NCBI GenBank assembly: GCA_944364615.1 | Contig: CALVWF010000010.1 | Span: 1,388 to 65,387, forward strand | DNA from: an uncultured Clostridia bacterium | GTDB lineage: Bacteria > Bacillota > Clostridia > Christensenellales > CAG-314 | Direction: 5' to 3' | DNA: 64,000 bases | Shown here: piece by piece, positions 17,851 through 47,782 of the stretch | Layout: each line of letters starts with the position of its first letter | Position numbering within the stretch: position 1 is the first letter of the stretch | Made by a program: the position numbers and the translations under genes | Notes under the pieces: generated by a model | Database searches by the model: none | The model's input: the letters and a program-made list of their open reading frames with translations, nothing else | Told to the model about the DNA's origin: nothing

Positions 17851-18521
17851 TTGAATTAAAGGATATAAGCAAAAGTTACAACTACAACAAATCCAACGAA
17901 ACAGTGGCGTTGCATTCGGTAAATCTTAAAATCGACAAAGGAGAAATGGTGGCGGTAGTTGGACCGTCGGGGGCGGGCAAGTCTACATTGTTGCACGTTA
18001 TAGGTGCATTGTGCACCATACAGTCAGGCAGTTACACCTTTGACGGAGAAGACGTTTCGGCAATGTCCGAAAACAAAAGAAGCAGATTCCGCAACGAAAA
18101 AATCGGTATCGTAATGCAAAATTTCGCGTTGGTGGAGGAGTACACGGTAGCAGACAATGTTGCCATTCCGCTGTATTTCCGCAAAGGCGTCAAAAACAGA
18201 AGGCAACTTGTGGCGGACGCAATGCAGAAAACGGGTATATACGACCTTAAAAACAAATACGCCTACCAGTTGTCGGGCGGAGAAAAACAGCGTTGCGCGA
18301 TTTCCCGTTGTCTTTGCCAAAATCCGCAGGTGATACTTGCCGATGAGCCAACGGGACAACTCGATTCGGCAAACGCCGCAAATATAATGGACATCTTCGA
18401 GCGACTGAACAATGAAGGCATGACTGTAATTGTAGTAACGCACGACGAAAACGTGGCAAACAGGTGCAAACGAATTGTGCATATTAAGGACGGTCAGGTG
18501 TTGAGCGATGTTGTCAGATGA
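17847..18521 (+). CDS. ABC transporter ATP-binding protein (LolD/MacB type)
   Basis: GPSGAGKST, LSGGEKQR, ILADEPTGQLD, VTHD. Confidence 0.93.
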   Translation: MIELKDISKSYNYNKSNETVALHSVNLKIDKGEMVAVVGPSGAGKSTLLHVIGALCTIQSGSYTFDGEDVSAMSENKRSRFRNEKIGIVMQNFALVEEYTVADNVAIPLYFRKGVKNRRQLVADAMQKTGIYDLKNKYAYQLSGGEKQRCAISRCLCQNPQVILADEPTGQLDSANAANIMDIFERLNNEGMTVIVVTHDENVANRCKRIVHIKDGQVLSDVVR

Positions 18522-19203
18522 AATTTTAAGCGTCGTGAACGTCACGCACAGATACAACGAAAGGGAAATACCTGCTCTGTCCGACATTTCATTTACATTG
18601 CGCAAAGGGGAAATGCTTGCCGTGACAGGTGCGTCAGGCGCCGGCAAAAGCACTTTGCTTAAAATTGCGGGCACATTTTTAAAGCCGACTGCGGGTGATG
18701 TAAAGTTCGAAGGCGGTATTCTGCCTTACGCTCTGTCGCAGTCGCGACTGCAAAAGTTCAGACGGGAGCAGATAGGTTTTGTCGAACAGGACTTTGCTCT
18801 TATTGACGTCCTCACCGCCGGTGAAAATATTATGCTTGCAATGCAACTGGAAGGCTGCGTAAATTACAGGTTTCTTTTCGATGTTACATCGCATCTCGGT
18901 TTAGACAAGTGTCTTGACAGGTATCCTTACGAACTGTCACGCGGCGAACAACAGCGTGTGGCTATTGCAAGAGCGGTCGCAAAAAAGCCGTGTTTGCTTA
19001 TTGCCGACGAACCGACGGCAAATCTTGACAGATCCAACGGTGAAAAGGTAGAAGAACTTTTGTGGGAAATAAATCTGAGGTACGGTCAGACAGTAATATT
19101 TGCCACGCACGACAAAAGTTTTGCAGACAGGGCGACTAAACGACTGACCCTTTCCGACGGAGTCGCCGTACTTTCGACAAACAGAAAAGCAAACGGCAGG
19201 TAA
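18508..19203 (+). CDS. Second ABC transporter ATP-binding protein
   Basis: GASGAGKST, LSRGEQQR, IADEPTANLD, ATHD. Confidence 0.92.
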   Translation: MLSDEILSVVNVTHRYNEREIPALSDISFTLRKGEMLAVTGASGAGKSTLLKIAGTFLKPTAGDVKFEGGILPYALSQSRLQKFRREQIGFVEQDFALIDVLTAGENIMLAMQLEGCVNYRFLFDVTSHLGLDKCLDRYPYELSRGEQQRVAIARAVAKKPCLLIADEPTANLDRSNGEKVEELLWEINLRYGQTVIFATHDKSFADRATKRLTLSDGVAVLSTNRKANGR

Positions 19204-25025: not shown

Positions 25026-25192
25026 CATTTACATACGCCGACTTGCAAAGCGTAAAAATTTCAAAAGCGTGTATCTTTGGATGTGTTTTTTTTCGATATG
25101 TGTTATAATGCAATTGCGGTAATTACAGACATCGGTTTTGTAATCATCGAAAGAGCAGATTATATTTCGGTAAACTGTTTTTTTTAAATTTT

Positions 25193-25222
25193 CCAACAAA
25201 AATCAAAAACCGTGTGTTTAAT
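25193..25222 (+). promoter_or_regulatory. Putative ECF-sigma promoter (copy 1)
   Basis: CCAACAAAA-N12-GTGTTTAAT, repeated with identical spacing at 27473. Confidence 0.6.
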
Positions 25223-25282
25223 AGTTGCAAACAGACAATTTATTGACACATTTACAGTGTAGCGACATTGGGGGAGAGCAAT

Positions 25283-25810
25283 GTGAACAGGGCTAAACTA
25301 AATAAATGTGTGTTACGCATTAAAGAGGGCGACGAACAGGCATTTGCCGAAATGTACGAAGCCACACGAAGAGGAGTCTTTTCTTACGTTTATTCCATAT
25401 TGCGCAATTTTGCCGTAGCGGAAGAGATAATGCAGGACACTTACATTAACGTAAAATTGAAGATAAGTACCTACAAGGAAGACACAAATTTTACGGCGTG
25501 GTTGTTGCAGATAGCCAAAAATCTGTCCTACAATTATCTGCGTAAAAGTAAACGTGAAACAGTTTCCGACGAAGCGGTGGTGAAAGCGGGCAAAAGTTAC
25601 TCTATACCCGATGAGGGGAAACCTGTAATTTCCGCAATGCGAAAGGTGCTCGGTCAGGAAGAGTTGCAGATAGTACTTTTGCACGTCGTTTCCGGCTACA
25701 AGCACCGTGAAATAGCGGAGTTTTTAGGCAAACCGCTGGGAACAGTGACCTGGACTTATAAAAATGCCGTCAGAAAAACCAGAGAATATCTTGAAAAGGA
25801 GGAAAAGTAA
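25283..25810 (+). CDS. ECF-type RNA polymerase sigma factor
   Basis: Regions 2 and 4: 'AEEIMQDTYI', 'FTAWLLQIAKN', 'GYKHREIAEFLGKPLGTV'. GTG start after SD GGGGGAG. Confidence 0.92.
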   Translation: MNRAKLNKCVLRIKEGDEQAFAEMYEATRRGVFSYVYSILRNFAVAEEIMQDTYINVKLKISTYKEDTNFTAWLLQIAKNLSYNYLRKSKRETVSDEAVVKAGKSYSIPDEGKPVISAMRKVLGQEELQIVLLHVVSGYKHREIAEFLGKPLGTVTWTYKNAVRKTREYLEKEEK

Positions 25811-27127
25811 TTGAAAAACAGAGATTTGTTCAAAAAACTCAATAAAGAATTCGATGAAGTTGTTCCTCCTATGTCGCAAAGGGTAAAGGAAGAGCCCATC
25901 AAAGTTGCCAAACAGGCAAAAACCGCTCAGACCGTTGCACCCGAAAAGACACAACGCAACGGCAGATTTTCCTTTACGTTCAGAGCGGTTGCCGTCGCAT
26001 GTTCCCTTTTGATCGTATTTGTGGCGTTGGCGGTAATAATTCCCAACGTAGGCTATAGGCAAAACGATACGTTTGTTTCCATGAAGATAAATCCCGAATT
26101 TTCATTAGTCGCCGACAGTAAAGGCAAGGTGGTAAACGTAGCGGCGGTAAACCGTGACGCGGAAGTGGTAATTTACGCTTTGAAAGAGGAAGGGCAGACG
26201 ATTGAAGACACCGACATCGAAGAGGCATTGGGACGTCTTGCTACCGTTTCCTATCGACTGGGCTACCGTGCCGACGGACAGATCAGTATTTCCGCGGTAA
26301 GCGTCAGAGGGGATGAGGCAACGGATGAAATATGTCGCTCGGCAAAGGCCGAAGTGGAAACATCCCTTGCCGACATTGCGCAAGTTACCGTCGACGCAGT
26401 GCGCGAAAGCGTCGAAGAACTGAAACAACGCGTTCAGACATTTGCCGACGACGTGCAAGACGATTTGCAATCGCTTGTTTCGGCAATGGCACGGCGCACC
26501 GATTATTTCGGCGAACTTGCCAAGCAGTTTGTGCAGAGCGGATTTGAAAGAGCGAAAATATCTCTTGCCTATACCGCCGATCTGCTGGAAAGTTACATCG
26601 ACACGCTGGAAATTCGTCAGCAGGCTATGTTCCGTTTGGAGGAAATAAACGACGCGATTTCGCAACGCAATTTGTCCTATCGGCAAGGAATACTGTTCAC
26701 GATAGTTTACGACGGATGGGATCTCGCCCAATATATAAGTTACGGCAACGAGGCGGACGAACAGACTGAGGCATTGTACGCTGAGTTTAACGCTCAGTTG
26801 CAGTTTATGGAAAAGGCAGGTCTTGTCGCTACCGAAACTCAGTATATTTCGGACAGGCTGCTGTATTCCGCGGTGGATTTTCAATCATTGCGTGAGGCTA
26901 TGGACAAAATCGAGCGGTTCGTGTGGGATATTGCCGACACTTTATCCTCGGAATTGCAGTCGTTGATCGATCTTACGGTATCCACATTGCTTGCCGGTTT
27001 CAGCGACGAATGGTCTGCCTTGTCGCAATCGGCCGAACAGGTGACTAATGCCGACAGTTACGTAAGCAGTATGTCACAACTTGTCGTTAAAGAATACCAA
27101 TTGCGCAAATCGCTTTATAGCAACTGA
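25811..27127 (+). CDS. Anti-sigma factor with an RsgI-like extracytoplasmic domain
   Basis: Directly follows the sigma gene. Short cytoplasmic N-terminus, one TM, then 'VSMKINPEFSLVADSKGKVVNVAAVNRDA'. Confidence 0.75.
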   Translation: MKNRDLFKKLNKEFDEVVPPMSQRVKEEPIKVAKQAKTAQTVAPEKTQRNGRFSFTFRAVAVACSLLIVFVALAVIIPNVGYRQNDTFVSMKINPEFSLVADSKGKVVNVAAVNRDAEVVIYALKEEGQTIEDTDIEEALGRLATVSYRLGYRADGQISISAVSVRGDEATDEICRSAKAEVETSLADIAQVTVDAVRESVEELKQRVQTFADDVQDDLQSLVSAMARRTDYFGELAKQFVQSGFERAKISLAYTADLLESYIDTLEIRQQAMFRLEEINDAISQRNLSYRQGILFTIVYDGWDLAQYISYGNEADEQTEALYAEFNAQLQFMEKAGLVATETQYISDRLLYSAVDFQSLREAMDKIERFVWDIADTLSSELQSLIDLTVSTLLAGFSDEWSALSQSAEQVTNADSYVSSMSQLVVKEYQLRKSLYSN

Positions 27128-27133
27128 ACAAAT

Positions 27134-27163
27134 GCCCGCTGTAAAAATGCGGGCGTTTTTTTT
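27134..27163 (+). terminator. Rho-independent terminator
   Basis: GCCCGC / GCGGGC stem followed by a T-run. Confidence 0.75.
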
Positions 27164-27472
27164 ATGCTGTTTTTTGCTTTAAAAATCGCAACTGTACGAT
27201 TTGCGTTTTATGAGGTAATTGCGTAATACTCGGTGTAAAAAGTAAAAATTGTGTTTGTGTTGCGAGGTGACGTCACATTCCGCTTCTATTTCATCGATGA
27301 GTGTATTTCGGACGGTAATTGCCCGATTCGGGCGCAATAAAAATAAAGGCGTATCTTTAAAAGCGTTTGTTAAATGTCACAGCGTTGAAATCGATTTACC
27401 TGTTTTTGAAGGTAAAATTTCAAGTTTTGCGTGGCGTCGGCTCAAATAAAATTTAAAAATTTTCTGAAATTG

Positions 27473-27502
27473 CCAATAAAACCTGATTTTGCCGTGTTTA
27501 AT
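27473..27502 (+). promoter_or_regulatory. Putative ECF-sigma promoter (copy 2)
   Basis: CCAATAAAA-N12-GTGTTTAAT, 63 bp before the lipoprotein start. Confidence 0.6.
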
Positions 27503-27565: not shown

Positions 27566-28945
27566 ATGAAAAAGACAGCAATGATTTTGGCAGTAGTGAT
27601 TTTGTCTTTAAGCGTTCTTGCGGTAGCCACAGGTTGCAATCCGACTGAAGCGCAGGCAGAAAGTTACGTTGTGGTGGACATAAACCCGTCGGTGGAGTTC
27701 GTGCTGGATTCAGACAATAAAGTTTTGTCCGTCAAAGCGGTAAACGAAGATGCACAGGTAATGCTGTACGGCGAAAAAGGTATAATAGGACTTAGTGTAG
27801 AAGACGCATCCCGTCGTATTGCCGAACTTGCGGTTGAATACAAGTACGTAAAGGAAGACGCAACGATAAGCGTCACCGTTACGGGTAAAAATCACAATAC
27901 CGAAGACAGCATTTACGCTCATATCGAAGCGGGATTCCTTCCGGTGTTCGACAAGACGGACCTCGAAGTTGCTCTTACCAGAACAGCCAATATTATGTAC
28001 GAAAAACGTCTGGAAATGCTTAAACAGCGTTACCCCGACAACGCCGACATTCAGGCAATGGATTCTGCGAAGTTGCGCCTTGTAGACGCAGCGATGCTTG
28101 CGGATTTCTCACTTGACCTTGAAGAAGCGGCGGCTATGACAAACGAGCAACTTGCCGCGGTTGTGTCAGAGGCTCACGAAAAATACAGCACGATGATACG
28201 TGCGGTAGCGGAAACTGTTTATGACGCAGCGGTGGCAACCTATGAAAATGCAGTGCAGACAGCGTTGGACAGTGCATATATTACCGTAAGTCTTGTCAAC
28301 GGTACGAGATATTCCGCTTTGCGTGCGGCACACCGCAGTATACTGACAATTGCCGAGGCGGCGGAAAAGTTGGCGCAACTGACGGGAATTACCGACGAAC
28401 AGATAGAAGAAATCGGACGTCAACTGCAACTGGAAGGTGAAAAACTTACTCAGTTTGTGGAAGAAGTAAAGAATCAGGGCAGTCAGTCTGTTGTGGAAAG
28501 CGTCAATTATGTTGTAGACAGAATGTATGCCAATATGACCGACAGCGAAAAAGAAGCGTGGGATCAATACGTTGAAAACGCTCAGGCAACGCTCGATCTG
28601 TACAGACAGGAAATAGAAGAAATTGACAGTAGCGTCAAGTCACAGTTGAAGGCAGCGCTGGCGCTGGTGGAAGGATTTACCGGACTGGATTTCAGCGAAA
28701 TAAACACCTTTGCCGATTTCTATAATCAGGTACTGGACGCAATGGAAAACAAGATTGCCGAACTGGAACAGTGGTTTGAAGAAAATCTGACGGCGGAAGA
28801 GAAGCAAAAGGTAGCCGAATTGCAGGAAAAAATGTCCGACACAATAGAAAAAGCGGAACAGACTCTGAACAACGCTATCGAGCAACTCAGACAGGAAGCG
28901 GAAGAATTCTTCACAGCCAAACAGCAAGAAAGATTGTCAGCCTGA
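27566..28945 (+). CDS. Lipoprotein with an RsgI-like domain and a helical C-terminal region
   Basis: Signal peptide with lipobox ...VATG-C24, then 'YVVVDINPSVEFVLDSDNKVLSVKAVNEDA'. Confidence 0.75.
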   Translation: MKKTAMILAVVILSLSVLAVATGCNPTEAQAESYVVVDINPSVEFVLDSDNKVLSVKAVNEDAQVMLYGEKGIIGLSVEDASRRIAELAVEYKYVKEDATISVTVTGKNHNTEDSIYAHIEAGFLPVFDKTDLEVALTRTANIMYEKRLEMLKQRYPDNADIQAMDSAKLRLVDAAMLADFSLDLEEAAAMTNEQLAAVVSEAHEKYSTMIRAVAETVYDAAVATYENAVQTALDSAYITVSLVNGTRYSALRAAHRSILTIAEAAEKLAQLTGITDEQIEEIGRQLQLEGEKLTQFVEEVKNQGSQSVVESVNYVVDRMYANMTDSEKEAWDQYVENAQATLDLYRQEIEEIDSSVKSQLKAALALVEGFTGLDFSEINTFADFYNQVLDAMENKIAELEQWFEENLTAEEKQKVAELQEKMSDTIEKAEQTLNNAIEQLRQEAEEFFTAKQQERLSA

Positions 28946-47681: not shown

Positions 47682-47782
47682 CGGCATTTTTAATTAAAAA
47701 CAGCGTTAAAATTGTTGCAATTGAATGACTGTTGTGCTATCATATAGGCGGTTGGAACAACCGACCGAAATTTAATATTTAC

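Follow-up and report, generated by a model that had tools for sequence, protein, structure and literature searches.

Two copies of a conserved bipartite motif as probable promoters of an extracytoplasmic function sigma factor, its own operon and a lipoprotein gene in an uncultured gut Clostridia bacterium

Sigma factors of the extracytoplasmic function (ECF) type commonly autoregulate and control a neighbouring gene, a textbook principle to which SigW, SigM, SigX and SigV of Bacillus subtilis provide examples. The 64,000-nt stretch analysed here (the window; contig CALVWF010000010.1 of assembly GCA_944364615.1, positions 1,388 to 65,387) stems from an uncultured Clostridia bacterium of the CAG-314 lineage, whose genome of 1.69 Mb is assembled in 14 contigs with 45% G+C. 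It raises the question of whether an uncharacterised ECF sigma factor encoded in it acts in the same way, as a bipartite motif precedes both the sigma factor gene and the gene of a lipoprotein further downstream. Judging from sequence comparisons, we consider both motif copies to be promoters of the ECF sigma factor encoded at 25283-25810, serving its autoregulation and the expression of the lipoprotein gene, with a probability of about 0.82.

The motif, CCAAYAAAA-N12-GTGTTTAAT, is present in two copies on the forward strand, at 25193-25222 (CCAACAAAA-ATCAAAAACCGT-GTGTTTAAT) and at 27473-27502 (CCAATAAAA-CCTGATTTTGCC-GTGTTTAAT). A preliminary description of the locus had reported a bipartite motif with 17 of 18 identical positions and a spacer of constant length and differing sequence, and the letters of the window bear this out: 17 of the 18 box positions are identical between the two copies, both gaps measure 12 nt, with unrelated sequences. 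The parts of the two putative promoters are given below; the conservation refers to an alignment of 29 sites and to a same-genus relative, the chicken-gut metagenome-assembled genome (MAG) Candidatus Limihabitans stercoravium.

25178-25192, + strand: A/T-rich tract, UP-element-like; TTT conserved at about -12 to -10 from the motif start (29 sites); aligns with 27458-27472
25193-25201, + strand: -35 box CCAACAAAA of the putative sigma-operon promoter; C, A, A at positions 2-4 and A at positions 6-8 (near-)invariant in 29 sites
25202-25213, + strand: 12-nt gap of unconserved sequence, at most 0.31 bit per position (29 sites)
25214-25222, + strand: -10 box GTGTTTAAT of the putative sigma-operon promoter; G, T, T at positions 3-5 invariant in 29/29 sites
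25227, + strand: predicted transcription start (G), fifth nucleotide past the motif; this column is a purine in 28/29 aligned sites
27458-27472, + strand: A/T-rich tract 5' of the putative lipoprotein promoter; AAAAATTTT is shared with the same-genus relative
27473-27481, + strand: -35 box CCAATAAAA of the putative lipoprotein promoter (motif search, matrix, alignment with the same-genus relative)
27482-27493, + strand: 12-nt gap of the putative lipoprotein promoter, sequence unconserved (site alignment)
27494-27502, + strand: -10 box GTGTTTAAT of the putative lipoprotein promoter (matrix and site alignment)
27507, + strand: predicted transcription start (G), placed in the same way as 25227

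With up to three mismatches allowed, the two copies are the only matches in the whole window, and with up to two mismatches a search of the whole genome yielded one extra match, located on contig 5. Assuming independent bases, we estimate (by our own calculation, which is not a tool output) that a second site with at most one mismatch should occur by chance about 5e-3 times per genome and about 1e-5 times within 5 kb on the same strand. According to an anchored comparison, the resemblance between the copies reaches past the boxes into the upstream A/T-rich tract (TTTT..AAATT) and a downstream block, and the site alignment contains a conserved yGnAA block 4-8 nt 3' of the motif. At the predicted start site of the lipoprotein gene, the block GGGT(A)GAAAATAC is kept in the same-genus relative, with one base inserted there. 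Duplication as the origin of the similarity between the two copies was ruled out, as the genes downstream are non-homologous, the gaps and flanks are unrelated and the boxes alone are kept.

The motif is not restricted to this genome. In 16 related genomes from five genera, (C/G)CAAYAAAA-N12-kTGTTTAAT is located 5' of both the orthologous sigma factor gene and the orthologous lipoprotein gene. The sigma orthologues of the same-genus relative and of three other genera are 49-78% identical, and the same boxes and the 12-nt gap recur there with unrelated gap sequences. In the fifth genus (g12; sigma factor 41-48% identical) the three-gene module is kept as well, and GCAAYAAAA replaces CCAAYAAAA. 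We compiled at least 33 sites in the 16 genomes, and all of them lie on the strand of the downstream gene. After two near-duplicate genomes had been dropped (29 sites), the information content was approximately 1.8-2.1 bits per position in the boxes and no more than 0.31 bit in the 12-nt gap. In all modules examined, the gap before either gene measured 12 nt, a length that was, together with part of the boxes, fixed in the pattern used for collecting the sites. In one genome (G014) the lipoprotein gene is on another contig than the sigma factor gene and is still preceded by CCAATAAAA-N12-GTGTTTAAT. Distances between motif and start codon range from 9 to 60 nt for the sigma factor genes and from 24 to 91 nt for the lipoprotein genes; in g12, the distance from the motif end to the sigma start codon is 9-20 nt in six genomes and 34-35 nt in two others. 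In the most compact arrangement (genome G048, locus L080, 503-541) the motif is 9 nt away from the sigma start codon, and the sigma factor mRNA would be almost leaderless and devoid of a ribosome-binding site.

A genome-wide scan had been proposed in the preliminary description as a check on the motif. Using a matrix derived from the sites of other genomes only, the two window sites ranked first and second in the entire genome (scores 30.5 and 29.6, the maximum being 30.8) among approximately 3.4 million scanned positions, with the reversed-genome control peaking at 23.3. An extended matrix that included the flanks gave 48.1, 41.9 and 35.4 for the three best sites, 17.3 for the next one, and no control site above 14. 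The score of 35.4 belongs to the third copy, on contig 5 at 64666-64695 (L003, 1501-1530), which reads CCAACAAAA-N12-TTGTATAAT, is located 27 nt 5' of a HAD-family hydrolase gene following recF and is kept in the same-genus relative. In a scan of 82 family genomes, the exact pattern was matched 10 times, always at a sigma or lipoprotein locus, vs once in the reversed control. The relaxed pattern was matched 33 times (in 22 genomes) vs once in the reversed control, and the matches often formed pairs on one strand, spaced by about 2 kb. These reversed-control comparisons (10 vs 1; 33 vs 1) are independent of the gap length chosen for the collecting pattern. Among the 16 genomes in which the sigma factor had a match at E <= 1e-38, 15 possess the relaxed motif, and the remaining one, G020, has the TGTATAT variant. 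One match, on contig 3 at 47717-47746, was dismissed as a chance occurrence inside a rhodanese-like reading frame (conserved ..ILVYCRSG..), with the same situation in G008 (L051); these matches in rhodanese-like genes illustrate well how motif scans can yield false positives.

How does the motif compare with promoters that ECF sigma factors are known to use? The experimentally mapped promoter of Thermoanaerobacter Tt-RpoE1 reads tGTTAC-N16-CGTC, with CGTC at -13 to -10 (PMC3397946). Here, the Y of CAAY is 16 nt away from the -10 box, i.e., AAY-N16-kTGT has the spacing of tGTTAC-N16-CGTC (PMC3397946). The -35 element would consist of (C/G)CAAY followed by AAAA, and after a 12-nt gap of free sequence the -10 element would be kTGTTTAAT, its first four bases standing in place of the ECF-type CGTC. 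In the Tt-RpoE1 register, +1 is predicted at the fifth base past the motif (G25227 and G27507), 10 nt after the fourth base of the -10 box; this fits the start-site guess of the preliminary description, which was 5-8 nt past the motif. In the six short-leader g12 genomes too little space remains for another core promoter, which means that the -10 element must be part of the motif itself. None of the leaders matched an Rfam family.

Some observations weigh against this assignment. The -35 element is CAAY rather than a strict AAC, with T in about one-third of the sites (CAAC in 19/29, CAAT in 10/29; the lipoprotein site of the window has AAT). At the N16 distance the -10 element is kTGT(TTAAT) and not the canonical ECF-type CGTC or GTC; its G and T are invariant, and the C of CGT or GTC is absent. 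The hexamer TTTAAT, moreover, is a 5/6 match to the housekeeping -10 consensus TATAAT, and the third site (TTGTATAAT) contains a perfect TATAAT. The information content of the boxes is in part set by the choice of sites, since the 33 sites were collected by pattern, and the related genomes are non-independent samples. In G014 the frame of the sigma factor gene (contig 102, approximately 18184-18704; L009/L036) is broken by a TGA and the match falls into two pieces, with both motif copies intact; this could be a pseudogene or an error of the MAG assembly. Finally, the promoters of a paralogous ECF module on contig 9 of the same genome closely resemble those of the window, with CCAACAATA-N12-CTGTTGTAT in front of the paralogous lipoprotein gene.

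The TTTAAT hexamer suggests one alternative, namely that these are promoters of the housekeeping sigma factor in which CCAAYAAAA is an activator site covering the -35 region. The perfect TATAAT of the third site and the ordinary housekeeping promoters found at the HAD hydrolase orthologues of other genera would agree with it. Yet the position where TTGACA would fall reads CAAYAA, which at 17-nt spacing is a 1/6 match, and neither motif site was called in a scan with the housekeeping-promoter consensus (TTGACA, 16-18 nt, TATAAT). The conserved TG directly adjoins the hexamer and is thus outside the extended -10 register, and with leaders of 9-15 nt, transcripts starting about 7 nt past TTTAAT would lack part or all of the ribosome-binding site. 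In addition, the module contains no conserved activator gene, and the two boxes are asymmetric, unlike the site of a dimer. Altogether, we judge housekeeping promoters of this kind to be very improbable.

The same asymmetry bears on the idea that the motif is no promoter at all, being instead a conserved repressor operator or an element acting at the RNA level. Conservation alone does not identify the binding factor, and in some sites a weak inverted repeat, AACAA/TTGTT, extends across the boxes. This repeat, however, is not kept (CCAAT is combined with GTGTT at 27473-27502), the conserved columns are asymmetric and the orientation follows the gene at all 33 sites. The short-leader genomes have no space for a promoter further downstream, no other promoter candidate is present between the preceding terminator and the lipoprotein gene, and the leaders resemble no Rfam family. 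An operator or RNA element therefore appears extremely improbable. A symmetric transcription-factor site was ruled out, because neither box is the reverse complement of the other, and the orientation is always that of the gene.

The ECF promoter reading also draws on the genes that the motif accompanies. These and their associated features are:

25101-25109, + strand: candidate extended -10 element (TGTTATAAT) of the housekeeping sigma factor, about 90 nt 5' of the ECF-type promoter, read from the sequence
25283-25810, + strand: ECF sigma factor gene, 175 aa; GTG at 25283 preferred to TTG at 25268
25811-27127, + strand: gene for a candidate membrane anti-sigma factor, 438 residues; its start abuts the sigma stop codon
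27130-27163, + strand: intrinsic terminator past the anti-sigma gene; GCCCGC/GCGGGC stem followed by eight T; -16.4 kcal/mol, z-score -3.1
27566-28945, + strand: lipoprotein gene, presumed target, 459 residues; lipobox ATGC with Cys24; SEAL/RsgI_M domain with Asn-Pro

The GTG at 25283 is the most likely start of the sigma factor gene, according to an alignment with the starts of its orthologues. The protein passed the family models for Sigma70_r2 (PF04542; 51.6 bits, cutoff 24), Sigma70_r4_2 (PF08281; 27.1 bits, cutoff 25.7) and TIGR02937 (65.6 bits, cutoff 42.9) and has regions 2 and 4 only, as expected of an ECF member. It reached no NCBIfam equivalog cutoff, the top model being SigY with 88 bits vs a cutoff of 194; its nearest solved structure is SigW (E 1e-12), and a literature search for CAACAAAA as a sigma factor motif gave nothing relevant. 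In region 2.4, all members of the clade carry an Asn where many ECF sigma factors have the Asp of a DxxR motif. E. coli sigma-E likewise has Asn and not Asp at this place (KNYL). In Tt-RpoE1, the Asp of the DxxR motif reads the G of CGTC (PMC3397946). The Asn in region 2.4 of the window sigma factor fits its atypical -10 element.

The candidate anti-sigma factor consists of a short cytoplasmic N terminus, a single transmembrane helix, an RsgI_M (SEAL) domain with Asn-Pro, and a helical C terminus. Its RsgI_M domain (PF23750) scored 46.9 bits, and N94 and P95 are nearly invariant among 11 orthologues; a domain scan with E up to 0.01 detected no RsgI_N domain. The lipoprotein contains the same RsgI_M domain (68.3 bits), in which N40 and P41, together with the lipobox C24, are invariant among 11 orthologues, followed by about 320 helical residues. 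In a structural model of the lipoprotein, the N-terminal domain resembles the SEAL structure of B. subtilis RsgI (8T9N; E 1.3e-5, TM-score 0.64-0.77 on the target) and also matches RsgI2 of C. thermocellum. The helical C terminus had no significant match in the PDB, with a moderate quality of the model (mean confidence score pLDDT 68.5). These two are the only RsgI_M proteins in the whole genome. Paralogy of the anti-sigma factor and the lipoprotein over their full length was ruled out, since profile comparison places the homology in the SEAL domain plus about 50 further residues.

Paralogous modules in the same genomes raise the question of which sigma factor reads the motif. The host genome encodes three ECF sigma factors. 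One of them belongs to a module on contig 9 (approximately 75000-78150, minus strand) that consists of the ECF sigma factor (36% identical), a membrane anti-sigma factor lacking RsgI_M and a lipoprotein, with TTAGCAAAA-N12-CTGTTATAT before the sigma factor gene and the CCACCAACAATA-type sequence CCAACAATA-N12-CTGTTGTAT before the lipoprotein gene. An alternative-sigma promoter might hence be read mainly or additionally by another sigma factor, most likely by this paralogue, given the identical layout of its module and the very similar boxes, including a -35 box CCAAC common to both modules. Against this stands the finding that each module in several two-module genomes keeps its own -10 variant at both its promoters, those of the sigma factor gene and of the lipoprotein gene downstream. 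In G007 the variants are ATGTATATT and TTGTATATT (TGTATAT), in G008 CTGTTGTTA occurs twice, and on contig 9 of the host genome CTGTTATAT and CTGTTGTAT correspond to CTGTT(A/G)TAT; the variants among modules are TGTTTAAT, TGTATAT and TGTTGTAT. Moreover, the matrix of the window module gives the paralogue's promoters scores below 14 vs 42-48 for its own, and the motif accompanies the orthologous sigma module at all loci examined. Reading mainly or also by the paralogue is improbable in our view, and cross-talk between the contig 9 module and the window module is possible.

The assignment of the motif to the adjacent sigma factor over the paralogue rests on co-location and on co-variation, with each paralogous module keeping a -10 variant of its own within the same genomes. 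A further instance of co-variation comes from g12, in which GCAAC instead of CCAAY accompanies a changed region-4 helix (TVTSKYKRS vs TVTWTYKNA); being a single evolutionary event, this lends slight backing to the sigma assignment. A scan against NCBIfam covered seven other sigma-like genes, with the contig 9 paralogue and a contig 3 gene left out, and recognised SigE, SigF, SigG, SigK, a SigH-like protein and one ECF sigma factor; the contig 3 gene is SigA by our reading of its sequence. No SigI was found among the sigma-like genes scanned against NCBIfam, a genome search with the SigI model not having been made. To our knowledge, SigI-type promoters are unlike the motif described here, and none of the consensus promoters of the other sigma factors of the host resembles it.

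The preliminary description had taken the motif as the recognition sequence of this sigma factor and the lipoprotein as its target. Both proposals are now supported by conservation at both genes in 16 genomes, by near-exclusivity for these loci in 82 genomes, by the motif kept on a separate contig in G014, by the ECF-type geometry with a purine at the predicted start, by the short leaders, by the intervening terminator and by the module-specific -10 variants. With a terminator between the anti-sigma and the lipoprotein genes, the latter needs its own promoter; the second motif copy is located about 310 nt past the terminator and 63 nt 5' of the gene, and a promoter scan revealed no other candidate past the terminator. 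The window region 27166-27440, i.e., the approximately 275 nt from terminator to promoter, is without a conserved reading frame and does not align with the same-genus relative.

The first copy would drive the operon of sigma and anti-sigma factor in positive autoregulation, beside a likely housekeeping promoter about 90 nt 5' of it, and the second copy would drive the lipoprotein gene behind the strong terminator. The extended -10 element at 25101-25109 is probably the basal promoter of the sigma operon; its counterpart in the same-genus relative is TGGTATAAT, with a conserved ACnGACATC after it.

The regulon looks tiny, comprising the sigma/anti-sigma operon, the SEAL-domain lipoprotein and probably the HAD hydrolase. 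The site on contig 5 was invisible to the preliminary description, being on another contig, and is somewhat more probably than not a genus-specific third target: the HAD hydrolase orthologues of other genera lack a conserved site. Its -10 element is also a perfect TATAAT, and it may be a dual promoter. On contig 11 (21205-21234, minus strand), TTAACAAAA-N12-TTGTTTAAT occurs about 100 nt 5' of a gene for a small membrane protein, with the conserved downstream block present. The -10 box of this site is perfect and the -35 box deviant. With the extended matrix the site stayed at or below 14, the limit for reporting, and it may represent a weak target or a shared one. In G054 (L076, 2498-2527), the interval from the anti-sigma to the lipoprotein gene contains a third motif copy, followed by an additional small gene (MAKTKKKNN...); the regulon therefore differs between species.

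What could set this circuit in motion is suggested by the SEAL domains. In RsgI, this domain contains an Asn-Pro self-cleavage site (PMC10328401, PMC10556640). As in the SigI-RsgI systems of Bacillus and Clostridium thermocellum (PMC10556640, PMC10328401), the candidate anti-sigma factor has a membrane-adjacent SEAL domain with Asn-Pro, and the genome encodes an M50 site-2 protease, so that by analogy a release of the sigma factor along the SigI-RsgI route is likely. In the resting state, the co-transcribed anti-sigma factor would presumably keep the sigma factor at the membrane, and the extracellular SEAL domain of the anti-sigma factor would be self-cleaved as in RsgI. Upon dissociation of the ectodomain, the site-2 protease (M50) could cut the remaining membrane stub and free the sigma factor, which would then stimulate expression of itself and of the SEAL-domain lipoprotein; in the host genus, the HAD-family hydrolase would probably respond as well. 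In contrast to SigI-RsgI, the sigma factor is a canonical ECF protein of 175 residues with a normal region 4 and lacks the SigI-type C-terminal domain, and its main target would be the SEAL lipoprotein.

The proposed system resembles Tt-RpoE1-type autoregulated ECF promoters in its boxes at fixed distance, AAC (here also AAT)-N16-four-base -10 (PMC3397946). Further features shared with autoregulated ECF systems are the motif in front of both the sigma operon and a neighbouring envelope gene, the co-transcribed membrane anti-sigma factor and the small regulon. It differs from ECF promoters in the -10 element (kTGTTTAAT vs CGTC/CGTA) and in the -35 element ((C/G)CAAY plus AAAA vs TGAAAC/GGAAC plus a T-rich part). 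E. coli sigma-E promoters are characterised by GGAACTT and GTC (PMC6648896), and the motif described here has in common with them the GT core of the -10 element, with T before and A/T-rich sequence after it (PMC6648896). Unlike them, it has GTT instead of GTC, another -35 element and a spacing that is, by our count, about one base longer, and it belongs to another phylum and goes along with another type of anti-sigma factor.

The motif is very probably the sigma factor's own promoter, and the regulatory circuit is solid but ordinary in kind. For an uncharacterised clade of ECF sigma factors in uncultured gut Clostridia, these results provide a candidate recognition sequence that can be tested, predicted transcription starts and a regulon that is close to complete, and they link a canonical ECF sigma factor to an RsgI-type, presumably self-cleaving anti-sigma factor and to a lipoprotein with the same domain. 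The promoter variants paired with paralogous sigma factors in single genomes could be used to study how ECF sigma factors avoid cross-talk or as parts for orthogonal expression. A more far-reaching idea, which we regard as rather unlikely, is that essentially the only other output of the sigma factor is a lipid-anchored copy of the SEAL domain of its own sensor, making the module a self-contained feedback device. If this were true, the loss of the anti-sigma ectodomain would induce a lipoprotein that has this cleavable domain, too. The lipoprotein would compete for the same envelope partner or ligand and so reset the pathway, or replace a lost envelope tether, and the wider clade would represent a family of two-gene envelope sensors in which it is mainly the -10 boxes that separate the promoters from one another.

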